From positions 1 through 10,081 of the IMG/VR virus record IMGVR_UViG_2663763286_000006: a stretch of DNA of 10,081 nucleotides. The stretch is one strand, 5' to 3'. This document shows, piece by piece, positions 1 to 10,081 of the stretch (its first letter is position 1; each line of letters begins with the position of its first letter). The translations under genes and the position numbers were made by a program. Below the pieces are notes generated by a model. The model had not been told where the DNA came from and did no database searches. It saw nothing but the letters and a program-made list of their open reading frames with translations. This stretch comes from a virus (Duplodnaviria; Heunggongvirae; Uroviricota; Caudoviricetes).

Positions 1-2
1 TA

Positions 3-119
3 ACGTGGGTGGACTGGTATAACAATCGACGATTGCTGGAAAGGCTGGGCCATATTCCTCCGGCAGAAGCAGAAAAAGCTTATTATGCTTCCATCGGAAA
101 TAATGATCTGGCAGCCTGA
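3..119 (+). CDS. IS3-family transposase OrfB, C-terminal fragment (…TWVDWYNNRRLLERLGHIPPAEAEKAYYASIGNNDLAA*)
   Basis: Open frame from the window edge to TGA at 117-119. The C-terminal tail is typical of IS3-family DDE transposases and lies 42 bp upstream of the IS terminus. Confidence 0.75.
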   Translation, partial: TWVDWYNNRRLLERLGHIPPAEAEKAYYASIGNNDLAA

Positions 120-136
120 GTTCACAGATAAAATAC

Positions 137-161
137 TCTCCAGGAAACCCGGGGCGGTTCA
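137..161. repeat. IS right terminal inverted repeat (tctccaggaaacccggggcggttca; reverse complement TGAACCGCCCCGGGTTTCCTGGAGA)
   Basis: Matches the repeat at 9701-9725 (TGAACCGCCCCGGAAATCCTGGAGA) at 22 of 25 positions; begins with the TGA terminus typical of IS3-family ends. Confidence 0.8.
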
Positions 162-680
162 GGCTGGCATATTTCCTGTTGCCTTCATGGCCTCCAAAAT
201 AACCAGAACGCCATCTCGCCCAACCACCTCAGCGATAACCTCGGTGTTGTCGCCAACAACATCGCAGAATGCCTGAACTGCCTTACGAGCCAGCTCATTC
301 TCCACTGCCAGCGCCGTGCGATTACCCTCCAGCTCTGCAATGCGCTGTTTTGCGGCATCCAGTTCAATCGACAATTTTTCCAACTGCTCTTGATGCTTCT
401 TGTATTCCTGATATGCGTGCCAAGACTGACCTTTGCGCACACTATCAGTGATATCAGTAATCTGTTCTGGTGTTAGCGTGGTCAGTGGCTGTGATGGGAA
501 AATAAGCACTTTCCCGGAATCCCAATCAAAACCAGCGTGAATTGACTGAACCTCAACTGAAGGTGTTGAACCAATGCTGCCAGGCGAATGAACAACGATC
601 GTTACATTCATATCGCGACGATGGCTGTGGTTGTTGGACAAAATACGATTCACCAACTCAGAAAATTTGGAAAATTTCAT
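159..680 (-). CDS. Prophage hypothetical protein with C-terminal coiled-coil (173 aa as read); 3' end probably truncated by the IS insertion
   Basis: ORF MKFSKFSELVNRIL… with a heptad-like segment (QEQLEKLSIELDAAKQRIAELEGNRTALAVENELARK). Its stop codon TGA (159-161) is the terminal TGA of the IS itself. The start overlaps the upstream gene stop in an ATGA arrangement. Confidence 0.5.
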   Translation of the reverse strand: MKFSKFSELVNRILSNNHSHRRDMNVTIVVHSPGSIGSTPSVEVQSIHAGFDWDSGKVLIFPSQPLTTLTPEQITDITDSVRKGQSWHAYQEYKKHQEQLEKLSIELDAAKQRIAELEGNRTALAVENELARKAVQAFCDVVGDNTEVIAEVVGRDGVLVILEAMKATGNMPA

Positions 681-967
681 GCTGATTCCCCTTTCTCTGC
701 TCTCTCCTGTCGGAACATCACTATCATCAGGTCGCCTTTTGTCGCTATCCTGGCTGTTGTACCTGGTTCAATGCGGCTAAGCTCAAATGCGTCATAGAAC
801 GCTTCTAATGCCTTCTGGCGTAGTTCCTGTTTGCGCCGTTTTTTCCACTGTTTTAGGAAAATGGAACCCAGCCATCGCCATGTACGGGACATGATGTAAA
901 GCCAACCGAGAAGTGCCAGACCGGTATTTAGGAGCGTATCGATCGTTATTGTCGTGTCGATATTCAC
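677..967 (-). CDS. Small putative membrane protein (96 aa, GTG start)
   Basis: A GTG at 967 overlaps the upstream stop (GTGA) and is preceded by AAGGAAG at about 6 nt. Hydrophobic segment LLNTGLALLGWLYIM followed by a basic stretch KQWKKRRKQ. The annotated ATG at 1000 has no Shine-Dalgarno sequence and would overlap the upstream gene by 36 nt. Confidence 0.45.
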   Translation of the reverse strand: MNIDTTITIDTLLNTGLALLGWLYIMSRTWRWLGSIFLKQWKKRRKQELRQKALEAFYDAFELSRIEPGTTARIATKGDLMIVMFRQERAEKGESA

Positions 968-1830
968 TGGCTGCTTCCTTTGCGAATCTGTTCCGCCCAT
1001 TCTTCAAGGGATTTCTCCGCATATTCACCAGACAGGCCATCAATCGGATGCGCTTCATTAGCCAACTCTTCTTTCGCTGACAAAATCATGCGTGTAACGT
1101 CGAAAACTTCACGCAAAGACTTATTGATAAATCCGTGATTGAACGCAGCAGCAAGACGGCTGGCGGTATAGTTAATCCCCTCGTTGCGTGCTTCCGCACG
1201 TACTTCAGCAAGGAAAGCATCGGTGGCTGGGGTTTCGACATTAGGTCGAAGCTCATAATCACAAACTCTTTCAATCCATGGTGATACTCTGTCGCATTTC
1301 CTCTTCTTGCGTTCACCGACCTTGGTTGCCTGCTGAATAATTACCCCCCAGCAAATGCTTTCGACCTCTTCGCTCCATCCATCGCAAGCATCACCTCTAT
1401 AGTCGTCAATTGCAGCCTCAGCAGCAGCGATAGCCTCCTCAGCAGTTTTGTGACACTCGAAACTAAATTCAGAGCCATATGAGAAATACATAGCCCCGGC
1501 CTTAAGCCCCGCATTCTCCGCCACCAGCGCCGCGAGATTAGTCTCAAGCTCTGCAATTCGACACATAGCATCAATATTTGTGTCCTCCAGGCGCTTAATT
1601 TCACCAAGCAGCTCCAGTGCAACCTTTGGGTTGAACGCGGCAACATAACGAGCGTTGTTCTCTGCATTTTTCTGTCCATCAAAGCCGGTCCATTTGATAA
1701 CGTCTTCACATCGTTCATCACCGGGCGTGTGCACCGCATAAGTACCAGTATCTGTCGAAATAAATGCGACCCATTCGTCTGGTGTTGCCTTTTCTGCCGC
1801 CTCACGCAGTACCTGATAGTCAATTGTCAT
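964..1830 (-). CDS. Ead/Ea22-like prophage protein (288 aa)
   Basis: N-terminus MTIDYQVLREAAEKATPDEW… and a central coiled-coil (LELLGEIKRLEDTNIDAMCRIAELETNLAALVAENAGLKA) resemble Ea22-like proteins of lambdoid early-left regions (from memory). Start chosen at the ATG that overlaps the upstream stop (ATGA), with AAGGA 8 nt upstream. Confidence 0.55.
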   Translation of the reverse strand: MTIDYQVLREAAEKATPDEWVAFISTDTGTYAVHTPGDERCEDVIKWTGFDGQKNAENNARYVAAFNPKVALELLGEIKRLEDTNIDAMCRIAELETNLAALVAENAGLKAGAMYFSYGSEFSFECHKTAEEAIAAAEAAIDDYRGDACDGWSEEVESICWGVIIQQATKVGERKKRKCDRVSPWIERVCDYELRPNVETPATDAFLAEVRAEARNEGINYTASRLAAAFNHGFINKSLREVFDVTRMILSAKEELANEAHPIDGLSGEYAEKSLEEWAEQIRKGSSQ

Positions 1831-2471
1831 TCTCGCCATCCTTCACAGTTGTAATCACTACAGCCTTCAAAATCATATGGGCTGTACTGCCAGGTTATTT
1901 TTCCGCAATGCGGACAATTCCAACGCACCTTCCCGCTTCGCGACTTCTTTCTTCTGTTTTGCTTTTTCAACCAGTCAGGCATGACCAAACCTGCGCCCTG
2001 AACCATTGTTCTGCGGTTAAAGTTATTGATATTGAACGTCCGGCGCTTTGCTGCATCAGCAATGGAAAATGGCAACCAAACTATTCCTGGTTCGTTTTTG
2101 TTGGCGACGCTAAAGATGGTCGCTTTACTGAAGTCATCTGTTGGCAATCCACCGTGTTGAAGCCAGTAAACATCGTTGCCGTTCCAGCTACCTTTTTTGT
2201 AGGCCACATACGCAGTGCAATCTGACTCAATCAGGCTTTCTGTAGGGATGTACTGGCAATCAACGTGCCACACAGCCATTGCATCCACGCTATCAGCGCA
2301 AACAGGCTGATCGATATCTCGTCCACAATTCCAGGCTTTTTGGGCTGCTTCCAGCGTGTAAACATGAGCGCGATCGATATCAGAACTGTAACCATTGCCG
2401 TTATGGCAATGGAATGAGGCGTTATTACCCACAGTTTCACGCAAGCACATCATGTAAAAGCGGTTATTCAC
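1827..2471 (-). CDS. Hypothetical protein with C-terminal Cys-rich zinc-ribbon-like motif (…WNCPHCGKITWQYSPYDFEGCSDYNCEGW)
   Basis: 214-codon ORF with a GTG start at 2471 preceded by GGGAGG at 6 nt; the stop overlaps the next start (ATGA). Function not recognised. Confidence 0.5.
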   Translation of the reverse strand: MNNRFYMMCLRETVGNNASFHCHNGNGYSSDIDRAHVYTLEAAQKAWNCGRDIDQPVCADSVDAMAVWHVDCQYIPTESLIESDCTAYVAYKKGSWNGNDVYWLQHGGLPTDDFSKATIFSVANKNEPGIVWLPFSIADAAKRRTFNINNFNRRTMVQGAGLVMPDWLKKQNRRKKSRSGKVRWNCPHCGKITWQYSPYDFEGCSDYNCEGWRE

Positions 2472-2679
2472 TGGATGCCTCCCAGCAAATTTGTCTTATA
2501 TAAGAACTGTTAACGCGCTTTACTTTCCCGTCGAACTCCAGTTTCTTTAGACGACGCAAAACGTATGCCGTTTTGAGTGTGCGATATTTATCCCTAAGCC
2601 AGTTGGTCACGACGTAAGTCATACAGCGCCCGTGTTCTTCCAACACCCGAACTATTTCTTCGTCGGTTGGCTTGCTCAT
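2464..2679 (-). CDS. Small basic protein (71 aa), possible DNA-binding protein
   Basis: ATG at 2679 preceded by AAGGAG at 7 nt; overlaps the upstream stop (ATGA). Basic and helix-rich (RRLKKLEFDGKVKR). A winged-helix fold is only a guess. Confidence 0.5.
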   Translation of the reverse strand: MSKPTDEEIVRVLEEHGRCMTYVVTNWLRDKYRTLKTAYVLRRLKKLEFDGKVKRVNSSYIRQICWEASSE

Positions 2680-2897
2680 TTTGTCGCTCCTTCAGCTTTC
2701 TCTACTTTCGCTGCCATGATTTCCAGCTTTTGTGCTGCCGATGCCGCTAACCTGTGAAATTCTTCATCTGTTTCAACTGGAATTGGTACAAACCTGACAC
2801 CAATTTGAGCAAGGCTATGCGCCATTTCGAGACTTGCTCTTAACTCTGCTGGGGATGCTTTATTCAGGCCGACTTCCTCACAAATAACTGATTGCAT
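2676..2897 (-). CDS. Hypothetical small protein (73 aa)
   Basis: ORF MQSVICEEVGLNKASPAELRASLEMAHSLAQIGVRFVPIPV…; sits 10 nt downstream of the preceding stop and is co-directional with its neighbours. Confidence 0.45.
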   Translation of the reverse strand: MQSVICEEVGLNKASPAELRASLEMAHSLAQIGVRFVPIPVETDEEFHRLAASAAQKLEIMAAKVEKAEGATK

Positions 2898-2906
2898 ACG
2901 CTCGCC

Positions 2907-3632
2907 CTACTGAATACGCTCAAACTCGATTACCCAAACCCAGGGATTAGCACTCCAGCTTTCTTCGCCGTAGATGGATTCCCACAGGCGCTGGAACGCA
3001 ACCTTGGCCATTGCGAAATCCCCCTTGGGAGTAAGGAATGTTCCCGGGTGATCAGGAAGCAAACTTCCAGCAGGCGGAACGCCCTCATCCCTTGCATCGC
3101 ATTCGCTGATATCGTTCAACCGCTCAACGCGCACGTTGGTAATTTCCACCAGGATGCGTGATGCCCATCGCGGCATGTGAATTGATGGACGCCACCCACC
3201 ATCAAACTTTTCATTCACAGTGTGAGGTTTCCAGTCGGCATCATCGGGTATCGACCATAAACCGTAATCACCAGGCTTTTGCTCACAACTGGCCCGATAA
3301 ATCCTTGCTGCGTTCTTCTCATCGCCACGACAAAGGTTGTCGTTCCAGTCCACACTGCAACCATCTTCATTGCCTAATATCGCCCATGTTTCACGAACCC
3401 AAATTCGATCGCCGACGATACCAAAGGGGCAATTGAAAACACTGCTTACACCATCAGCCCCGTACCACTGAAAACCTGCACCAATTTTTCTAACCATCAC
3501 CGGTGCTTCTGGACCAACTTCCGCAGGCTGATTTTTCATTATCCGCCGCGTCTGCGTTTTCCTTCCTTCGAGGATGGCCCGGACCATCTCATCGTTGAAA
3601 ATCATGCCGCGCTCTTTCACTTCGCCTTTCAT
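2907..3632 (-). CDS. Hypothetical phage protein, possibly ASCH/PUA-like fold (GRKTQTRR motif)
   Basis: Long ORF with an N-terminal …MIFNDEMVRAILEGRKTQTRRI… segment resembling the GxKxxExR-type ASCH signature (weak, from memory). Start placed at the third in-frame ATG (3632), which has AGGGGGA immediately upstream and lies 10 nt after the stop of the small peptide ORF. ATGs at 3668, 3650 and 3605 are alternatives. Confidence 0.5.
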   Translation of the reverse strand: MKGEVKERGMIFNDEMVRAILEGRKTQTRRIMKNQPAEVGPEAPVMVRKIGAGFQWYGADGVSSVFNCPFGIVGDRIWVRETWAILGNEDGCSVDWNDNLCRGDEKNAARIYRASCEQKPGDYGLWSIPDDADWKPHTVNEKFDGGWRPSIHMPRWASRILVEITNVRVERLNDISECDARDEGVPPAGSLLPDHPGTFLTPKGDFAMAKVAFQRLWESIYGEESWSANPWVWVIEFERIQ

Positions 3633-3642
3633 GCATCCCCCT

Positions 3643-3729
3643 TTACCCATGCGCGACGATGCCGCCAAAAGTGATAGAGAACAGCCAGAAATAGATCGCG
3701 GCCATAATGATTTTGAATGCCGTGTTCAT
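3643..3729 (-). CDS. Unannotated small hydrophobic peptide, 28 aa (MNTAFKIIMAAIYFWLFSITFGGIVAHG)
   Basis: Not in the supplied ORF track (too short). ATG at 3729 preceded by AGGAG with an 8-nt spacer. The peptide has a single predicted transmembrane-like core, and its stop lies 10 nt upstream of the next gene start. Confidence 0.35.
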   Translation of the reverse strand: MNTAFKIIMAAIYFWLFSITFGGIVAHG

Positions 3730-3757
3730 ATTTTCAGCTCCTGTGATTGATTGGATA

Positions 3758-3788
3758 CATGCCGCGCCTTGCGGCATGTTTTTATTTT
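3758..3788 (+). terminator. Intrinsic terminator-like hairpin oriented for the + strand (CATGCCGC-gcctt-GCGGCATG followed by TTTTTATTTT)
   Basis: 8-bp GC-rich stem, 5-nt loop and a T-rich tract on the + strand only. It is convergent with the minus-strand operon and lies immediately upstream of the small peptide gene's RBS. Confidence 0.5.
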
Positions 3789-3815
3789 CACTTCCCCTGT
3801 CTTAAAAATCAATAT

Positions 3816-3828
3816 TTATTAGAGCAAT
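3816..3828 (-). repeat. 13-mer junction motif ATTGCTCTAATAA (minus-strand orientation), copy A
   Basis: Exact copy; it overlaps the tandem stop codons (TAA TAA) of the HAD phosphatase gene. Confidence 0.6.
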
Positions 3829-4334
3829 TGTTGTTGATAAAGAAGCGCATTTTCATACTCCCTGACCATTAATGTAAGTACGCCATGACTCCTGAACACA
3901 CGCGCCACTTCAATCTTATCTTCCAGCGCGAACGCAATTTTACTTAGACCAATTTTCTTCAGGAGATCAATCTTTGCTGGACCGTCATTTCTGTCATCGG
4001 TGGCAGGACGCATAGATAGCAAAGGCTCAGCCCCGTTTGTTACGTACTTCCGCAGCCAGGCTCGTGTTTTATCCCTTGCGATCTCACAGCGCCCGGTTAC
4101 AAACCAGACCGTGTAAACGTTAAATAACTGGCGCACCATATCAATAACTGGAGTGATGGGAGCATCAGTGTCACAGGCAAGGTTAAACTCGTTCCAGTGC
4201 TCTGTTAATGCACCTTTGCCAGGTGGTGGAAGTAAATGCAGCCTGTCTTCCGTTGCCTCTGATATCGTCCCATCAATATCTACTATGACGATGTACGGAC
4301 GTTCCTGGTGTGCGTGTTTATTGAAAATACTCAA
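3819..4334 (-). CDS. HAD-superfamily phosphatase (polynucleotide-kinase 3'-phosphatase-like domain)
   Basis: HAD motif I IVIVDIDGT (DxDGT) near the N-terminus, motif II-like VWFVTGR, and a downstream acidic motif ATDDRND. TTG start at 4334 preceded by AGGAGG. Confidence 0.6.
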   Translation of the reverse strand: MSIFNKHAHQERPYIVIVDIDGTISEATEDRLHLLPPPGKGALTEHWNEFNLACDTDAPITPVIDMVRQLFNVYTVWFVTGRCEIARDKTRAWLRKYVTNGAEPLLSMRPATDDRNDGPAKIDLLKKIGLSKIAFALEDKIEVARVFRSHGVLTLMVREYENALLYQQQLL

Positions 4335-4352
4335 ATGCCCTCCTCATTGGAC

Positions 4353-4386
4353 GAAAAAAATGCTGGTGGGCGCACTCCACCAGCAT
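4353..4386 (-). terminator. Rho-independent terminator (minus strand): 10-bp stem ATGCTGGTGG/CCACCAGCAT, 7-nt loop, then U7
   Basis: Perfect 10-bp inverted repeat at 4360-4386 followed on the minus strand by TTTTTTT (4353-4359); located between the stop of the 420-aa gene (4407) and the HAD gene start (4334). Confidence 0.65.
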
Positions 4387-4406
4387 TAAAAGTGACACTG
4401 TAACTA

Positions 4407-5669
4407 TCAGCGAACGTAAATAGTGCCGCCGTTCTCTTTTTCCCATGCATCGCTACGTGCATAGCAAACATCGAGAAGTCTTCTTGCCGCAGTTTCCTCT
4501 AAACCCAATTCGACAACCAACTGCTCATGACGGCGGGTAACCACATCAAACAGGGTATGCAGCCCTTTAGTTGCCAGATCATCAATGAATTCCGGTTCGA
4601 ACGGCAGCTCTGCCTCTGCCAACATAACCTCTTGCGCCCACTCAACTCGACGGACCAGTTCCGGGCGGCGGCTTTCCATCTCTTTACAGATCAATTCATG
4701 GAAGAACTCTACCCAACCTTCCGGCTGGAACTCGCGGAAAATGGCCAACGGCTGGAAGTTTGGCATCAACCATTCGTTGATCCGGATATCAATGGCATAG
4801 CCCATGTCGCAGCAGAACTGATAAGCAAAGTCCAGCTTAGAAACGATATAAGGACGCTCGTTATTGAACTCTTTAGGCGATGAGATCCCATAAGCCAGGA
4901 GGCGCGGGAAGAAGGAGATTTGCCCTAACGTCGGATGAAGTTTTCTTGCAGGGAAACGGCGCTCAGTAATGCCATACATTTCCTTCTTGAGCGTCGCAAA
5001 TTTGGCATTCTCATTAACCAGCGCGGTAACCTCTGCTTTTTTATTAGCAAATGCCACGCGCGCTTCGCTTGCATCTTTAATAGTTTTTTTGAGCTGTTGG
5101 TTAAGGTCGGCGACCTGCTTACGCAGTTCCTGTCGCTCGCTTTTAGCTTTGTTATAGCGTTTCTCAAGGTTAAAAGGATCAAGTTTCATGATCTCTTTAT
5201 ATTGAGATTTTAGCGTTGAAATCTGTGAGTTCCGCAGTTCAACCATCGCGGTCATTTCATTGAGTTTTGTTTCCAGCTCAATGCTTATACGTTCGGCATT
5301 ATCAGCACGCTGGTTGGCGTCATGCGTCGCATCGTCGATCGCGTCCTGTTGCTGGCGTTTCAAATGTTCAATTTGCAGCTGAAGCTCTTCAATTTCTTTA
5401 CCCTTCAGACCGAGATCCAACTGCATATTTTCAGCTGCATCTACCAGGGAGTTATGGCTATCAGCTTCTGCGTTATAAACATCAATAAGCTGTGCGTGAA
5501 GCATCTCCGCTGACTGAACCGCATTATCAAAAAAACGCGCTGTGAGGTCATCACAACTAACGCGGCGTTGCGCGGCCCGGATGTTCTGGATAATGGCCGG
5601 GATACCGGCATTCAGGACGTCAGGGATAGATACATTTTCGATTGATTGGTTTTGTGCTGAAGTGCTCAT
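4407..5669 (-). CDS. Large hypothetical protein (420 aa): N-terminal coiled-coil (about residues 60-230), C-terminal globular domain of unknown function
   Basis: Long ORF with strong heptad periodicity and K/E/Q richness (…LQLQIEHLKRQQQDAIDD…ELRKQVADLNQQLKK…), then a Trp/Phe/Cys-containing C-terminal domain. Its start lies 1 nt after the upstream stop (TGAAATG). Confidence 0.6.
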   Translation of the reverse strand: MSTSAQNQSIENVSIPDVLNAGIPAIIQNIRAAQRRVSCDDLTARFFDNAVQSAEMLHAQLIDVYNAEADSHNSLVDAAENMQLDLGLKGKEIEELQLQIEHLKRQQQDAIDDATHDANQRADNAERISIELETKLNEMTAMVELRNSQISTLKSQYKEIMKLDPFNLEKRYNKAKSERQELRKQVADLNQQLKKTIKDASEARVAFANKKAEVTALVNENAKFATLKKEMYGITERRFPARKLHPTLGQISFFPRLLAYGISSPKEFNNERPYIVSKLDFAYQFCCDMGYAIDIRINEWLMPNFQPLAIFREFQPEGWVEFFHELICKEMESRRPELVRRVEWAQEVMLAEAELPFEPEFIDDLATKGLHTLFDVVTRRHEQLVVELGLEETAARRLLDVCYARSDAWEKENGGTIYVR

Positions 5670-5670
5670 T

Positions 5671-5889
5671 TCAAAGTTCCGTATTAGCTTGTGCTTCGGT
5701 CATTTTTCCTAAGTATGAAGGAGGAAGGACTACGCAATTTGTATCCAGTCCCTCACCTATGGCAGCCTGTAAAATTCTGGCTAAGGTGAGTCTCTTGTTG
5801 CGATACCTGGTGATGACATGCCTGATACCGCCGGTCGGCGTAACAAAGGCGATCAGCCAGTAGTGATATTTCCGTCGGAATGGCCACAT
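5671..5889 (-). CDS. Hypothetical small protein (72 aa)
   Basis: ATG at 5889 preceded by AAGGTG at 4 nt; the stop directly abuts the start of the 420-aa gene (coupled pair). Confidence 0.45.
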   Translation of the reverse strand: MWPFRRKYHYWLIAFVTPTGGIRHVITRYRNKRLTLARILQAAIGEGLDTNCVVLPPSYLGKMTEAQANTEL

Positions 5890-5903
5890 AGTGCACCTTG
5901 TAG

Positions 5904-5916
5904 ATTGCTCTAATAA
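5904..5916 (+). repeat. 13-mer junction motif ATTGCTCTAATAA (+ orientation), copy B
   Basis: Exact copy; forms a perfect 13-bp inverted repeat with copy C, enclosing the terminator hairpin. Confidence 0.6.
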
Positions 5917-5940
5917 AAAACGTGATGAGTGTACATCACG
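5915..5940 (-). terminator. Rho-independent terminator (minus strand): stem CGTGATG/CATCACG, 6-nt loop, then U6
   Basis: 7-bp inverted repeat at 5921-5940 followed on the minus strand by TTTTTT (5915-5920); lies between the GT-A-like gene stop (5971) and the 72-aa gene start (5889). Confidence 0.55.
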
Positions 5941-5956
5941 CTTTAAAAATATGGAA

Positions 5957-5969
5957 TTATTAGAGCAAT
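5957..5969 (-). repeat. 13-mer junction motif ATTGCTCTAATAA (minus-strand orientation), copy C
   Basis: Exact copy starting 1 nt after the stop codon of the 5971..6672 gene. Confidence 0.6.
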
Positions 5970-5970
5970 A

Positions 5971-6672
5971 TTATTCTGATTCTCGCTCAAAAAATGAGCT
6001 GACAAGGGGAAGCCAATCCTCTGACACTTCGCGAGGTCGCGGTTTGCCGTGGAAAAAGATTATTCGGCAGTCTTTTGGTAATGCCCCATTCCCCCTGGAG
6101 TAACGCGCGCTCGCATATTTTGAACCAGGTTCCACAACATCGGCCTTGTAACTTACAAACCATCCTGGATACAGATCCTGAAATGCTGGTGTATCATCGC
6201 CCATAACCTTCCGTAAGAACCCCTGATCACCCCAGCACTCAGTAGTGACACAACGAGAAATCCAACCTTCCGGATCTTGCCAGAATGAACTCCAGATATG
6301 CGCTTTAACACTATTTGGTATCCACAGGGCACCGCTGCCACGATATTGTGGATGGTAAAAATCCCTAAGCATGGTGAAGCTGGTTGGTGGATGCTCTAGG
6401 ATTGGGCGTATATCACCGGCAATAACCGTGTCCAAATCCAGATAGAACAGATCATCGGTTATATCCGGTCGGAACAACTCGATTTTCGCCCACCAGCCAC
6501 GGCACTTTTGCCACTGGTTGATCAATGGGACAACTTTGACGCCAGGTACATGTAAACGCTTCAGGTCTGTCAGGCAAATAATTTCATAGCCTTTTGGCAG
6601 TTGATTAACCAGCCACTGCACATCGGAAGCGTTATAGTCACCACCAGAGCGAAAAACTAAAGCAATCTTCAT
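5971..6672 (-). CDS. Hypothetical protein, possibly GT-A-fold nucleotide-sugar transferase-like (DxD-like LDLD motif)
   Basis: 233-aa ORF whose start overlaps the phosphatase stop (ATGA). It contains …[27 protein letters not shown]…, reminiscent of the sugar-binding/DxD region of GT-A glycosyltransferases. This is a weak, memory-based resemblance. Confidence 0.45.
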
Positions 6673-7346
6673 GCTGCACCATCACCTTTCACTTTCATCA
6701 ATGTCAGGTTTCCGCAAAATACGGCACCAGTGTCGATATACTGCTGATTCCAGAATGTCTTCGGGCTTTTCACCGGAGTGTGACCAAAGATAAAACGATC
6801 TGCGCCCGAAATTTCGCCACCAATATCATCCATCGAATCACTGATACGCTCGCGCGCCCAGACAACGTTGAAAAGCGGCACCTCCTTACCGAATTGGTAT
6901 TCATTATCCGGATAGTCGGCATGGGCTATAACGATAGTTTCTTGCCCGGTGTTCAACTCAATGATATAGGGCAGACGCTTTACCAGCTCCACCAGCGCCC
7001 AGGCTAATATTTCCTGATCAGTGTCCAGCATGAAGAACCATTGTCCGCCATTCATTAGCCAGTTATTCACGTTGCCATCTGGACTTAACGCATCAATCAT
7101 CAGCCGCTCATGGTTCCCCATCACTGCCCTGAACCAGGGCATCTGCAATAGTTCCAGACATTCGACATTTTCAGTACCGCGATCGATAAGGTCGCCGACC
7201 GATATCAGTAAATCCTGCGCCGGGTCAAAATCCACACGATGGAGTTCGGACATCAGTCTGGTGTAGCAACCATGCAGATCACCAACAACCCAGACATTCC
7301 TGTATTTGGTACCGTCGATACGGTGATAAATTGTGGGTGCCATCAT
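6669..7346 (-). CDS. Serine/threonine protein phosphatase, calcineurin-like metallophosphatase (phage lambda PPase / PrpA-PrpB-like)
   Basis: Canonical signature GDLHG … GDLIDRG … GNHE (DXH-GDXXDRG-GNHE). Length and N-terminus ([28 protein letters not shown]) align with lambda PPase as I recall it. Start chosen at the ATG overlapping the upstream stop (ATGA) rather than the ORF-track ATG at 7361. Confidence 0.85.
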
Positions 7347-7957
7347 GTATTCTTCAGCCATTCTTTAAGAGTCATCTGCGGAATACCTCCCATTTTCCCG
7401 CATGAAACAACGTCAATCCGTTCACGCGCAGACTGGAATAACAAAGGCAGGTGACTTAGATTTTTTGGCGTGCCGCCGGAGTGAACGCGTGGTTCTTGTG
7501 TAGCGTCAACGCCCACCAGGGCGACATGTTTGAATCCGATATGGAAAGCCAGGTTCAGAGCGCCATATGCACTATTGCCGCTGGCAATTTCATTCTCATC
7601 TTCGCAAAGTCCGAAATGTGCGGACCAGCGCCACGCCCACCACTCGGGAGAATGCTCCATGCCACGTTCAGCCACACGACGGAAGCACAGAACGCCGTCT
7701 CTGACTTCACGTTCTTTAACATCGGGTAGTGCCATGCAATAACAAACACCACGGCGACGGCGGCCACGACCAACGCGCCGCATATTGTCTGGCGATGGAT
7801 CAAGTGTGAAAAAATAAGAAGCGCGGTTCAGCCAGTCGATGGCCCCATTGACCGCTATAATCGGCACTCCGCGCGGCGCAACAAAGTTTGCGGCGCTTGG
7901 GCCACTGCCGACGATAATAACGCGATCACTGCCTCTAAATTTATTCTTGGGAAACAT
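7343..7957 (-). CDS. Hypothetical protein with N-terminal GSGPS nucleotide-binding-like motif (Cst-II/GT42-like or MptE/DUF115-like fold?), paralog 1
   Basis: Contains [10 protein letters not shown]…IIAVNG and later [16 protein letters not shown], which resemble the IIAGNGPSL and GYKEIYLSGID motifs of Campylobacter Cst-II-type sialyltransferases and DUF115 proteins (from memory). Clearly paralogous to the next gene upstream. Confidence 0.55.
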
Positions 7958-8484
7958 TGAATTGCACTGCTCCTACTTGCATTCAAAATATGTAAATCTG
8001 CGTGTTTTTTGCGGGTATCCAGGAACTGCTGTTGCCATTTTGAAATAGAAACCTGCGTTGGATTCCGTAGGGCTTGAGGGTGCGCGCCATGCCAATGAAG
8101 GCCGTTTTGCAGAGAACAGTCATAGCCGACTAATACCACTACTTCAGCCCCTGATTCAGCAGCCAGACTGATAGCCTGCGCGCCGCTATTTACCCCTTCC
8201 GCCGGTCCACAATATCGCCTGTACTCCAACGAAAATGATTTCGCCGCCGCCAGGTTGGCTGTCACTTTGCGGAATCTCCCTCCCGGTATGGTGGATCCGT
8301 ATTGCTTCCACCATGACAAATCACCGGCGTATAAGGCATAAATGTCATCGAACATCTGCCAGGAATTGTTAACCGCGATGATTGAACAGCCAGTTTTTTC
8401 TATAGCAGCACAGTCCTCACGAGTGAGTGACGGACCGCTACCGACACAAAAAACAGTCCTAGTCGCCCTGCGTGGTATGTTCAT
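7855..8484 (-). CDS. Hypothetical protein with GSGPS motif, paralog 2 (start placed at internal ATG by homology with paralog 1)
   Basis: Contains TVFCVGSGPS…IIAVNN and VVVLVGYDCS, matching paralog 1 motif for motif. Its C-terminal 34 codons overlap the start of paralog 1 by 103 nt. The ORF-track start at 8517 is an alternative. Confidence 0.5.
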   Translation of the reverse strand: MNIPRRATRTVFCVGSGPSLTREDCAAIEKTGCSIIAVNNSWQMFDDIYALYAGDLSWWKQYGSTIPGGRFRKVTANLAAAKSFSLEYRRYCGPAEGVNSGAQAISLAAESGAEVVVLVGYDCSLQNGLHWHGAHPQALRNPTQVSISKWQQQFLDTRKKHADLHILNASRSSAIQCFPRINLEAVIALLSSAVAQAPQTLLRRAECRL

Positions 8485-8680
8485 TCTCAGCTGCAAATTC
8501 AGCCTCCAGGCGAGCATTCATTTCAGCGATTACAGGGTCCACTACAGCATCTGTTTCCTGTTCATTACGCGGCATGATCGATGCCAGCGATTCATAATTA
8601 GCCTTGGATGACACGATTATTCTCCCGATGTTAATGTGCGCTATATCAAATGGCTCATATGTACTAATTAATTTATTATT

Positions 8681-9259
8681 TTAAGCAACATACAACCACT
8701 TGTCGCCGTTCAATACATGCTCAATAGCCTCACCCTTTTTAAGGCTTATGTATTCCAGGATGGCGGTTATCGCTTGTTCTGCACCATACGCAAGAACGAC
8801 GTAGTAACCTTCCTCTCTAAGCCTGCGCATCCAGGCGATCTGCTCTTTCGTCGGGGCTTTACCATTTGGTTCTTTAAGCTCAATTCGCATGCCGTGATAA
8901 ATACCGCATGCTTTATCGAGACTCATGTCCGGATAACCTTTTTTCTGCCCTTCAGCCTTCATTTTCCCGGCGGTTGCTTTTGAACGTTTCCATCCGTTAG
9001 GCGTTGCATGCAACAGCTCATAGATGTCAGGGTGCTTGCGTTCGAAGTAATCAAAAATGAAAACCTGCTCGAAGTGCTCGCAATTTCCGTCGCGCAGGTC
9101 TGGGTTCTTTGCCAGTGCTGCAAGTGCCTTCGCATGTGGAGAAACTTCTTTTACCGGCGCAAGCGATAAGAATGGATCCTTTTTGGTTTTTGGCCTGGAC
9201 CGCCCCTTATTTCGACGCTCACTAAAAGCCTGAAACTCTTCCTCAGTAAAGCGCAACAT
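8681..9259 (-). CDS. VRR-NUC domain (PD-(D/E)xK-type) nuclease-like protein
   Basis: C-terminal half has GYPDM … IELKEPNGKAPTKEQIAWMRRLREEGYYVVLAYG, matching the VRR-NUC pattern (PD … ExK … Q … G-hydrophobic). ATG start at 9259 lies 2 nt after the upstream stop. Confidence 0.6.
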   Translation of the reverse strand: MLRFTEEEFQAFSERRNKGRSRPKTKKDPFLSLAPVKEVSPHAKALAALAKNPDLRDGNCEHFEQVFIFDYFERKHPDIYELLHATPNGWKRSKATAGKMKAEGQKKGYPDMSLDKACGIYHGMRIELKEPNGKAPTKEQIAWMRRLREEGYYVVLAYGAEQAITAILEYISLKKGEAIEHVLNGDKWLYVA

Positions 9260-9261
9260 AA

Positions 9262-9507
9262 TCAGTCAAATCCTGCCGGTCGCATGCCATATTTACGCTG
9301 TTTTGCGGCCTGCTCTTCCCTGTGCCATTGCGCACATTCAGCGTCACAATTAATGCCTGATTCAATCGATTCATTGCAGTAACGACACTTCCCTGTAAAT
9401 ACCTGGCTCACGACCTGTGCCTGCTTTCTGATGTTATCGATGGCCATGTCTTTGAGAGCTTCTAACTGATTCATGCTCAGCTCTGCATCATCAACACGTT
9501 CTGCCAA
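9262..9507 (-). CDS. TraR/DksA-family C4 zinc-finger protein (lambda Orf73-like), TTG start
   Basis: CxxC…(17)…CxxxC arrangement (CRYCNESIESGINCDAEC) in a roughly 80-aa protein with an N-terminal helical segment. TTG at 9507 is preceded by GAGGAAA at 5 nt; an internal ATG 11 codons in is an alternative start. Confidence 0.5.
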   Translation of the reverse strand: MAERVDDAELSMNQLEALKDMAIDNIRKQAQVVSQVFTGKCRYCNESIESGINCDAECAQWHREEQAAKQRKYGMRPAGFD

Positions 9508-9564
9508 TTTTGTTTCCTCGTGAAGAACCTACTTAAGGGCAGAATGATACATTTCACATTCAAA

Positions 9565-9577
9565 ATTGCACTAATAA
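9565..9577 (+). repeat. Variant copy of the 13-mer motif (ATTGCACTAATAA, 1 mismatch), + orientation
   Basis: 12 of 13 identity to the motif at 5904-5916, located in the AT-rich region upstream of the first gene of the minus-strand gene array. Confidence 0.4.
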
Positions 9578-9700
9578 TTTTCTTTTATTGAGTTAAATAT
9601 TCAACAAATGACTAGCGGTAGAATCACCATCATCTATTTCTGGCAGGCTGACTATGGCTACATCAATCACTACAACCCAAAGCACCCGGCAATATCCTCT

Positions 9701-9725
9701 TGAACCGCCCCGGAAATCCTGGAGA
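9701..9725. repeat. IS left terminal inverted repeat (TGAACCGCCCCGGAAATCCTGGAGA)
   Basis: Inverted match to 137-161. Confidence 0.8.
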
Positions 9726-9754
9726 CTAAACTCCCTGAGAAAGAGGTAAACAGG

Positions 9755-10081
9755 ATGACTAAAAATACTCGTTTTTCCCCCGAGGTCCGTCAACGGGCAG
9801 TTCGTATGGTTCTGGAAAGTCAGGGCGAATATGACTCACAATGGGCGGCAATTTGTTCCATTGCCCCAAAGATTGGCTGTACACCAGAGACTCTGCGTGT
9901 GTGGGTTCGTCAGCATGAGCGGGATACCGGGAGTGGTGATGGTGGACTCACCACCGCTGAACGTCAGCGTCTGAAAGAGCTGGAACGTGAAAATCGTGAA
10001 CTGCGCCGCAGTAACGATATCCTTCGCCAGGCTTCCGCTTATTTTGCGAAGGCGGAGTTCGACCGCCTCTGGAAAAAATGA
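9755..10081 (+). CDS. IS3-family transposase OrfA (108 aa; helix-turn-helix and leucine-zipper region)
   Basis: [57 protein letters not shown]… followed by a leucine-zipper-like [30 protein letters not shown]. Ends in an A-rich stretch (GGAAAAAATGA) where the programmed -1 frameshift into orfB is expected in this family. Confidence 0.85.

Follow-up and report, generated by a model that had tools for sequence, protein, structure and literature searches.

Gene pap of a P1-like plasmid prophage is predicted to encode a stand-alone phosphatase of the T4-type Pnkp clade

The closest described systems are enzymes in which a HAD 3'-phosphatase is joined to a polynucleotide kinase. In bacteriophage T4, the phosphatase domain of Pnkp (structures 1LTQ, 2IA5 and 5UJ0; Pfam PF25109) is accompanied by an N-terminal P-loop 5'-kinase domain, and in Capnocytophaga gingivalis the same HAD phosphatase module is part of Pnkp1 (4XRP and 4XRU), a kinase-phosphatase fusion in the Pnkp1-Rnl-Hen1 heterohexamer, together with a ligase and a methyltransferase (PMC4411300). 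The subject of this analysis is the gene pap in a stretch of 10,081 nucleotides from a virus of the Caudoviricetes (IMG/VR record IMGVR_UViG_2663763286_000006, positions 1 to 10,081), referred to below as the window. The gene, an open reading frame (ORF) of 171 amino acids (aa), occupies 3819..4334 of the minus strand and starts with TTG (4334-4332). Its product, Pap, belongs to the T4-type Pnkp 3'-phosphatase (HAD, DxDxT) clade as a stand-alone protein without the kinase domain. Whereas Pnkp1 works in a complex, Pap stands alone, and unlike T4 Pnkp, Pap has no RNA ligase partner that could be detected in its phage, its activity being predicted. A precedent for a HAD 3'-phosphatase that serves DNA repair without a kinase of its own is yeast Tpp1. 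Like the phosphatase domain of mammalian PNKP, Tpp1 is a eukaryotic DNA 3'-phosphatase; the Pfam family of both (PNK3P) differs from that of Pap, neither gave a direct match to Pap, and the likeness would be one of functional analogy only.

The window is a P1-like plasmid prophage, and positions ∼1758-9700 are 98-99% identical to phage P1 and P1-like phage-plasmids. A 961-bp segment spanning the ORF was present in 980 of 5426 complete Escherichia coli genomes, and nearly all of the matching places were plasmids (1009 of 1041). The ORF coincides with the coding sequence "pap" of the P1 record AF234172 (AAQ14064.1), which carries the note "putative P1 acid phosphatase"; the labels used elsewhere are "3'-phosphatase" (E. 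coli RefSeq), "Pap" and "3'-phosphatase, 5'-polynucleotide kinase". Because pap had already been named and annotated, the finding is not new. The copy in the window has 13 nucleotide differences from P1 pap over the aligned codons, together with a change at the stop codon, and its start, flanking terminator and operator are the same as in P1. The P1 stop codon TAA (3828-3830) reads CAA in the window, which adds three codons, Gln-Leu-Leu (QLL), and is the sole structural difference from P1. The length of 171 aa is a local variant, and because of the lost stop codon the ORF extends into a C1 operator. In a genome-wide CRISPRi screen of P1, pap was scored NE (PMC10695390); the gene is an accessory function, dispensable for plaque formation. 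Its value as a discovery is therefore low, since it has been named from the P1 annotation onward, is called a 3'-phosphatase in databases and is dispensable in the laboratory, and what remains of value is the biochemistry of the very large family of stand-alone phage Pnkp phosphatases to which it belongs.

Against the Pfam family HAD_PNKP (PF25109), Pap scored 45.2 bits (gathering cut-off, 27.6), and all 80 aligned relatives matched the same family; Pfam revealed no P-loop domain in the 171-aa protein. Pap also matched PHROG 415 (1e-56) and PHROG 505 (2e-16), both of which are labelled "polynucleotide kinase", and had no match in NCBIfam. When a profile built from 11 close relatives was compared with the PDB, the best match was Pnkp1 (4xrp, 2e-6), followed by the T4 Pnkp phosphatase domain (5uj0, 5e-6) and T4 Pnkp (1ltq, 4e-5). 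The identity of Pap to T4 Pnkp is low, at 22-25%. The kinase-fused protein P0126 aligned with T4 Pnkp over its entire length (4e-16), and Pap shares 36% identity with the phosphatase halves of P0126 and proteins related to it; because of these fused relatives, the Pap subfamily is tied directly to the bifunctional enzymes.

A profile search collected 8148 representative clusters when the limit was E ≤ 1e-3, and 2258 when it was E ≤ 1e-10. Among the 150 best homologues, almost every one was 140-200 aa long, and only about 12 were longer fusions. With tblastn, homologues were found in 1124 of 50,697 phage records, mostly in siphoviruses of Klebsiella and Escherichia, and these were usually mislabelled "polynucleotide kinase". 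In a comparative study of jumbo phages, the "PKN-HAD" family was described as usually fused to a kinase (PMC7824862), whereas among the closest relatives of Pap the stand-alone form is at least as common. We consider the labels "acid phosphatase" and "polynucleotide kinase" to be imprecise for Pap and its stand-alone homologues, which correspond to the phosphatase half only.

The ORF can be regarded as coding beyond doubt, because of its HAD_PNKP and PHROG matches, the 8148 representative homologues and the strong purifying selection acting on it. In the comparison with P1, the ratio of nonsynonymous to synonymous substitution (dN/dS) was 0.125, which indicates strong purifying selection. In the comparison with P1-like phages with 55-75% protein identity, the synonymous proportion (pS) was saturated at 0.78-0.91, and the nonsynonymous proportion (pN) was only 0.17-0.31. 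A strong Shine-Dalgarno sequence, GAGGAGGG, was read directly at 4338-4345 on the minus strand, 3 nt upstream of the TTG start. That pap is a decaying pseudogene was rejected on the grounds of the strong purifying selection, although truncated alleles exist. Such alleles, of ∼100-120 aa, are frequent among database entries (protein clusters P0010, P0012, P0013 and P0016), and a separate 113-aa family, PHROG 36358, covers residues 1-111 of Pap only; because of these entries, recurrent frameshifted or miscalled copies of pap in P1-like plasmids are suggested. We also rejected the idea of a horizontally acquired island, as the GC content of the gene is 46.3% and that of the window 48.2%.

The structural comparison led to the same clade. 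An AlphaFold2 model of Pap based on 80 sequences had a pLDDT of 91.3 and replaced an earlier model from 11 close homologues (pLDDT 68). In a Foldseek search with the Pap model, Pnkp structures ranked first. In a further structural comparison, the Pnkp structures were followed by a HAD-IIIB plant storage protein, which scored 15.8, while no other structure exceeded 13.6. The predicted fold is a cap-less, Rossmann-like HAD fold nearest to the solved Pnkp phosphatases. A sequence-only reading of the window had reported the ORF, its size and its DxDGT motif exactly, and had likened the protein to the 3'-phosphatase domain of T4 polynucleotide kinase. This resemblance is upheld by the above-threshold HAD_PNKP score, the profile matches to Pnkp1 and T4 Pnkp, and the active-site counterparts described below, and it was the Pnkp structures, not capped sugar- or phosphoserine-phosphatases, that came first.

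Residues of Pap were mapped onto T4 Pnkp by hidden Markov model alignments to 1ltq and 5uj0, and by aligning a T4-like Pnkp residue by residue to 1LTQ. All of the HAD motifs could be placed on the minus strand. Motif I is the DIDGT sequence of residues 19-23 (4266..4280), in which D19 (T4 D165) is the predicted nucleophile, D21 (T4 D167) is the predicted general acid/base and T23 corresponds to T4 T169. Motif II, T80-G81-R82 (4089..4097), is the counterpart of T4 S211-G-R213, with T80 as the predicted phosphate contact. The motif III segment D117...K121 (3972..3986) corresponds to T4 D254...K258, with K121 as a second predicted phosphate contact, and motif IV, E138-D139 (3918..3923), corresponds to T4 D277-D278, with D139 as the predicted Mg2+ ligand. 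The T4-type motif IV reads D-D-R, whereas that of Pap reads E-D-K. Outside the motifs, R31, R109 and R148 of Pap correspond to T4 R176, R246 and R287, respectively. Pap thus has counterparts of T4 D165, D167, S211, K258 and D278, the roles of which have been described (PMC3592404). The residues D19, D21, T23, R31, R82, R109, D117, K121, D139 and R148 are invariant in stand-alone, kinase-fused and T4-like Pnkp proteins. Within this set, D19, D21 and T23 do not vary among the 80 aligned sequences, and they also align with the DxDGT of a T4-like Pnkp. R31, R82 and D117 are invariant in a further alignment that includes this T4-like Pnkp. The T4 counterparts of these last three residues, Arg176, Arg213 and Asp254, were reportedly found to be essential in mutagenesis by the Shuman laboratory.

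By homology, Asp19 would attack the phosphate to form an aspartyl-phosphate intermediate, with Asp21 serving as the general acid/base, Thr80 and Lys121 gripping the phosphate, and Mg2+ being held by Asp19, Asp139 and the backbone carbonyl of Asp21; water would then free inorganic phosphate. We have high confidence in this predicted chemistry, that of a Mg2+-dependent DxDxT phosphomonoesterase that acts via an Asp19-phosphate intermediate.

The name under which P1 records the gene implies a different enzyme, a generic class B/C-type acid phosphatase of broad small-molecule specificity that has no connection with nucleic acids. The label "putative P1 acid phosphatase" agrees with a weak match to the Pfam family Acid_phosphat_B (PF03767; E 0.029), a family that 54 of the 80 aligned relatives also match. 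However, the score of Pap was 14.3 bits, which is under the cut-off of 27 bits, the PNKP-type matches are higher by both sequence and structure, and the kinase-fused relatives are 36% identical to Pap. Class B and class C acid phosphatases are exported, as periplasmic enzymes or lipoproteins. The N-terminus of Pap, MSIFNKHAHQERPY, read directly, shows no hydrophobic signal peptide, and no hydrophobic export segment was recognized in MSIFNKHAHQERPYIV, which was read by eye and not by a predictor. A secreted acid phosphatase was rejected on account of the lack of a signal peptide and the sub-threshold Pfam score, and we regard an acid phosphatase of any such generic kind as highly improbable. 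Pap is a cytoplasmic, cap-less enzyme.

As for its function, we estimate a probability of about 0.6 that Pap acts in lytic growth as a phosphatase of 3'-ends or 3'-nucleotides, making termini blocked by a 3'-phosphate accessible to host polymerases, ligase or exonucleases. The likeliest substrates would be the 3'-terminal phosphates of DNA or RNA ends and 3'-mononucleotides, from which a 3'-OH would be produced, and 2'-phosphate and 2',3'-cyclic-phosphate ends may be further substrates. Our best guess at the role is that Pap would unblock 3'-phosphate ends on damaged or cleaved nucleic acid, on which host polymerases, ligase or 3'-5' exonucleases could then act. Several observations argue for a 3'-end substrate: all relatives that have been characterised heal the ends of polynucleotides, Pap retains the counterparts of T4 Arg176, Arg213 and Asp254, and the nearest multi-domain relatives are fused Pnkp proteins. 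The gene neighbourhoods of two homologues point in the same direction. In Xanthomonas phage Xp12 (locus L011, 3986-5355), the homologue immediately precedes the gene for an ATP-dependent DNA ligase, and nrdAB is close by. In Xp12 DNA, cytosine is replaced by 5-methylcytosine. In a divergent P1-like contig (locus L003, 5135-6489), whose Pap is 57% identical to that of the window, a Rv2179c-like 3'-5' exoribonuclease (182 aa) and a 101-aa ORF are located between pmgS and pap; the genes between pmgS and pap in this contig overlap or are tightly spaced, the terminator after pmgS is absent, and a strong terminator follows pap.

Several points weigh against this assignment. In a literature search, we found no assay of Pap or of any stand-alone family member. 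A 3'-phosphatase would duplicate the activities of host Xth and Nfo. Relative to T4-type Pnkp, Pap has 13-17 additional loop residues in the segment from R31 to W47. In one member of the family, a MazZ-like dATP/dGTP pyrophosphohydrolase domain is fused to the phosphatase, and other members stand beside a P-loop protein of PHROG 139 or beside NrdAB. Moreover, the expression by read-through proposed below is deduced from a missing promoter match.

Because relatives adjoin, or are fused with, proteins of nucleotide metabolism, a mononucleotide substrate is a live alternative. According to this explanation, which the sequence-only reading had also suggested, Pap would be an enzyme of the nucleotide pool, dephosphorylating free 3'- or 5'-(deoxy)nucleoside monophosphates during lytic growth so as to salvage or reshape the pool, not the ends of polynucleotides. 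One arrangement in its favour is a three-gene module found in T1-like phages (locus L008, 2851-5079) and in Kagunavirus (L009, 2865-5031), in which a metallophosphoesterase gene, a HAD_PNKP phosphatase gene and a gene for a P-loop protein follow one another; the same module occurs in an Aeromonas phage of the Autographiviridae (L016, 1979-4142), where the scan covered the phosphatase gene and the P-loop gene. The first gene, of ∼376 aa, belongs to PHROG 704, "DNA repair exonuclease", and has only weak Pfam metallophosphoesterase matches. The P-loop protein that follows the homologue in all three groups is the PHROG 139 protein, labelled "deoxynucleoside monophosphate kinase", a label that a PDB sequence search did not confirm. 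The stand-alone phosphatases of the T1-like phages (Drexlerviridae), Kagunavirus and other phages are 36-40% identical to Pap, ∼150-165 aa long and have the same R31-W47 loop, and P1 has neither of the neighbours that flank them. The three genes may represent either a Pnkp divided into separate proteins, with an esterase added, or a set that serves nucleotide salvage. A pool role is further favoured by the T4-like phage ELT4, which has an extra stand-alone copy right after nrdB despite a full Pnkp and RNA ligase, by the Xp12 copy near nrdAB, by another homologue three genes downstream of thymidylate synthase, by the MazZ-like fusion, and by the fact that T4 Pnkp itself hydrolyses 3'-dTMP (PMC3592404). 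However, no gene of nucleotide metabolism adjoins pap in the P1-like phages, and the PHROG 139 kinase, unassigned by sequence, may be a split-off polynucleotide kinase. In addition, the closest homologues that have a characterised relative are polynucleotide enzymes, and Arg31, Arg82 and Asp117 are conserved. The recurring partners point two ways, with the DNA ligase of Xp12 and, in T1-like phages, a split kinase and a metallophosphoesterase suggesting the processing of ends, and NrdAB elsewhere suggesting work on the nucleotide pool, and we consider a pool enzyme unlikely, if worth keeping in view beside the 3'-end phosphatase.

The sequence-only reading had also raised the possibility of anti-defence end-healing. 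On this account, tRNA or rRNA that host anticodon nucleases or ribotoxins have cleaved would be healed by Pap and could then be re-ligated. The modules with which T4 Pnkp and Pnkp1 heal ends are homologous to Pap, its homologues are widespread in phages, and Iyer et al. describe PNK-HAD phosphatases as components of RNA repair in phages (PMC7824862). However, healing and sealing also requires a 5'-kinase and a ligase. In the P1-like genome MH422554, no polynucleotide kinase, RNA ligase or DNA ligase is annotated. Searches by tblastn with the kinase halves of fused relatives and with the T1-like kinases found nothing in the P1-like genome or in the window, and those with a T4-like RNA ligase and the Xp12 DNA ligase gave chance-level matches only, although very divergent ligases could escape such a search. 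Because no kinase or ligase is detectable in the P1-like genome, a T4-style pathway is unsupported; P1 appears not to encode a self-contained system for tRNA healing and sealing, and would be unable to carry out such repair alone. The host RNA ligase RtcB joins 3'-phosphate or 2',3'-cyclic-phosphate ends to 5'-OH ends (established biochemistry, cited in PMC3592404), and removal of the 3'-phosphate by Pap would block this route rather than help it. When Pap and its neighbours were scanned, Pap had no match in PADLOC or among anti-defence families, and a literature search found no link to a HAD phosphatase in NARP3 or other recent anti-defence papers. The non-essentiality of pap on laboratory E. 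coli is neutral in this respect. In view of the lack of sequence support, we consider anti-defence RNA healing improbable. The same scan produced a weak PADLOC match between the coiled-coil protein PmgS and LmuB, an SMC-like component of Lamassu (E 1e-4), which is probably a matter of coiled-coil compositional similarity.

A related idea that dispenses with kinase and ligase is rather improbable as well: Pap may be a Pnkp phosphatase module that works independently of both in phage-host conflict, removing 3'-phosphate or 2',3'-cyclic-phosphate groups from RNA or DNA that has been cleaved. If this were so, the stripped ends would be opened to 3'-5' exonucleases or host polymerases, or host RtcB would be denied its substrate, and the large family of stand-alone phage homologues might share such a role.

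The transcriptional setting of pap bears on when a 3'-end phosphatase of this kind would act. Upstream of pap on the same strand is pmgS (4407..5669, minus strand), which encodes a coiled-coil protein of 420 aa and belongs to the same transcription unit; the synteny of pmgS and pap is kept in divergent P1-like phages. The pmgS stop (4407) is followed by an intrinsic terminator on the minus strand (4352..4387; hairpin 4359-4387), which has an 11-bp stem, a 7-nt loop, a free energy (dG) of -18.1 kcal/mol and a U7 tail, and the Shine-Dalgarno sequence of pap begins a few bases past the U tail. This terminator is kept in the divergent P1-like loci L004 and L017, whose Pap proteins are only 70-79% identical to that of the window. 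The arms of its stem are GCTGGTGG/CCACCAGC in the window versus GCTGATGGG/CCCGTCAGC and GCTGATGGG/CCCATCGGC in the divergent P1-like phages, and the changes, judged by eye, are apparently compensatory, with pairing preserved. No promoter-like site was found between the terminator and the Shine-Dalgarno sequence and start codon of pap, where the terminator leaves no room for one. Because the terminator stands directly upstream of the Shine-Dalgarno sequence, transcription of pap must read through it.

On the other side of the gene, a GC-rich hairpin at 3757..3779 (dG -16.3) has a T-tract on the plus strand only. Past this hairpin, the pap strand reads UAUCCAAUC, which does not supply the U-tract expected of a Rho-independent terminator, and the hairpin is absent from the divergent P1-like loci L004 and L017. 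By our estimate, RNAs made on the minus strand from the PpmgT promoters, which are predicted in the P1 annotation, would start at this hairpin. For pap, it does not qualify as a canonical terminator. Of the two terminators between which the sequence-only reading had placed the gene, therefore, the upstream one is real and faces the right way, whereas the downstream one is not a terminator on the pap strand. The idea of an autonomous cassette built on this bracketing was not supported, as the sole correctly oriented terminator stands between pap and the one promoter that could plausibly serve it.

The nearest upstream promoter on the pap strand is, as far as the P1 annotation indicates, PpmgR (5904..5969 region). 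Three C1 operators, sites of 17 bp resembling ATTGCTCTAATAAATTT, match features annotated in P1: OpmgRa (5953-5969, minus strand) and OpmgRb (5904-5920, plus strand), both recognized by sequence match upstream of pmgR-pmgS-pap, and OpmgT (Op88), ATTGCTCTAATAAATAT, downstream (3812..3828, minus strand). Because of the terminator upstream of pap, the lack of a promoter of its own, and the position of PpmgR with its C1 operators as the nearest one, pap appears to be the distal member of the C1-repressed pmgR-pmgS unit, attenuated by this terminator. Low-level transcription would probably start at PpmgR and read through the terminator after pmgS; it would take place once the prophage is induced or a cell infected, not in the lysogen, with translation from a weak TTG start. 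A preprint reports that pap transcripts are seen at 10-20 min of infection with P1vir. As judged from this arrangement, pap looks like a lytic-cycle gene, namely the attenuated tail of a C1-controlled lytic operon, and not an autonomous cassette; the view of it as a self-contained moron would be corrected accordingly.

The OpmgT operator overlaps the last codons of pap and its stop, and it controls the downstream operon of the pmgT-like gene. Between the 3757-3779 hairpin and the pmgT-like gene, a hydrophobic ORF of 28 aa (MNTAFKIIMAAIYFWLFSITFGGIVAHG) with a good Shine-Dalgarno sequence (CAGGAGCTGAAAATATG) was found at 3646-3732 on the minus strand; P1 has the identical ORF, which is unannotated in AF234172 and has no PHROG match. 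Farther downstream, the window departs from P1, which itself keeps pmgT-U-V downstream of pap. At 1-2937, lambdoid-type genes replace the C-terminus of pmgT, pmgU and pmgV, with the mosaic junction at ∼2937 inside the pmgT-like gene, and among the replacing genes are one for an Ead/Ea22-like protein (964-1839) and others that belong to PHROGs 2457, 9799 and 292. At the other end of the window, an IS3-family transposase orfA, which we take to be IS629-like, occupies 9755-10081 on the plus strand, just past pmgL and the O26 C1 operator (9565-9581), and the match to P1 stops at ∼9700. The many partial matches of the window to Stx-converting phages are probably due to this insertion.

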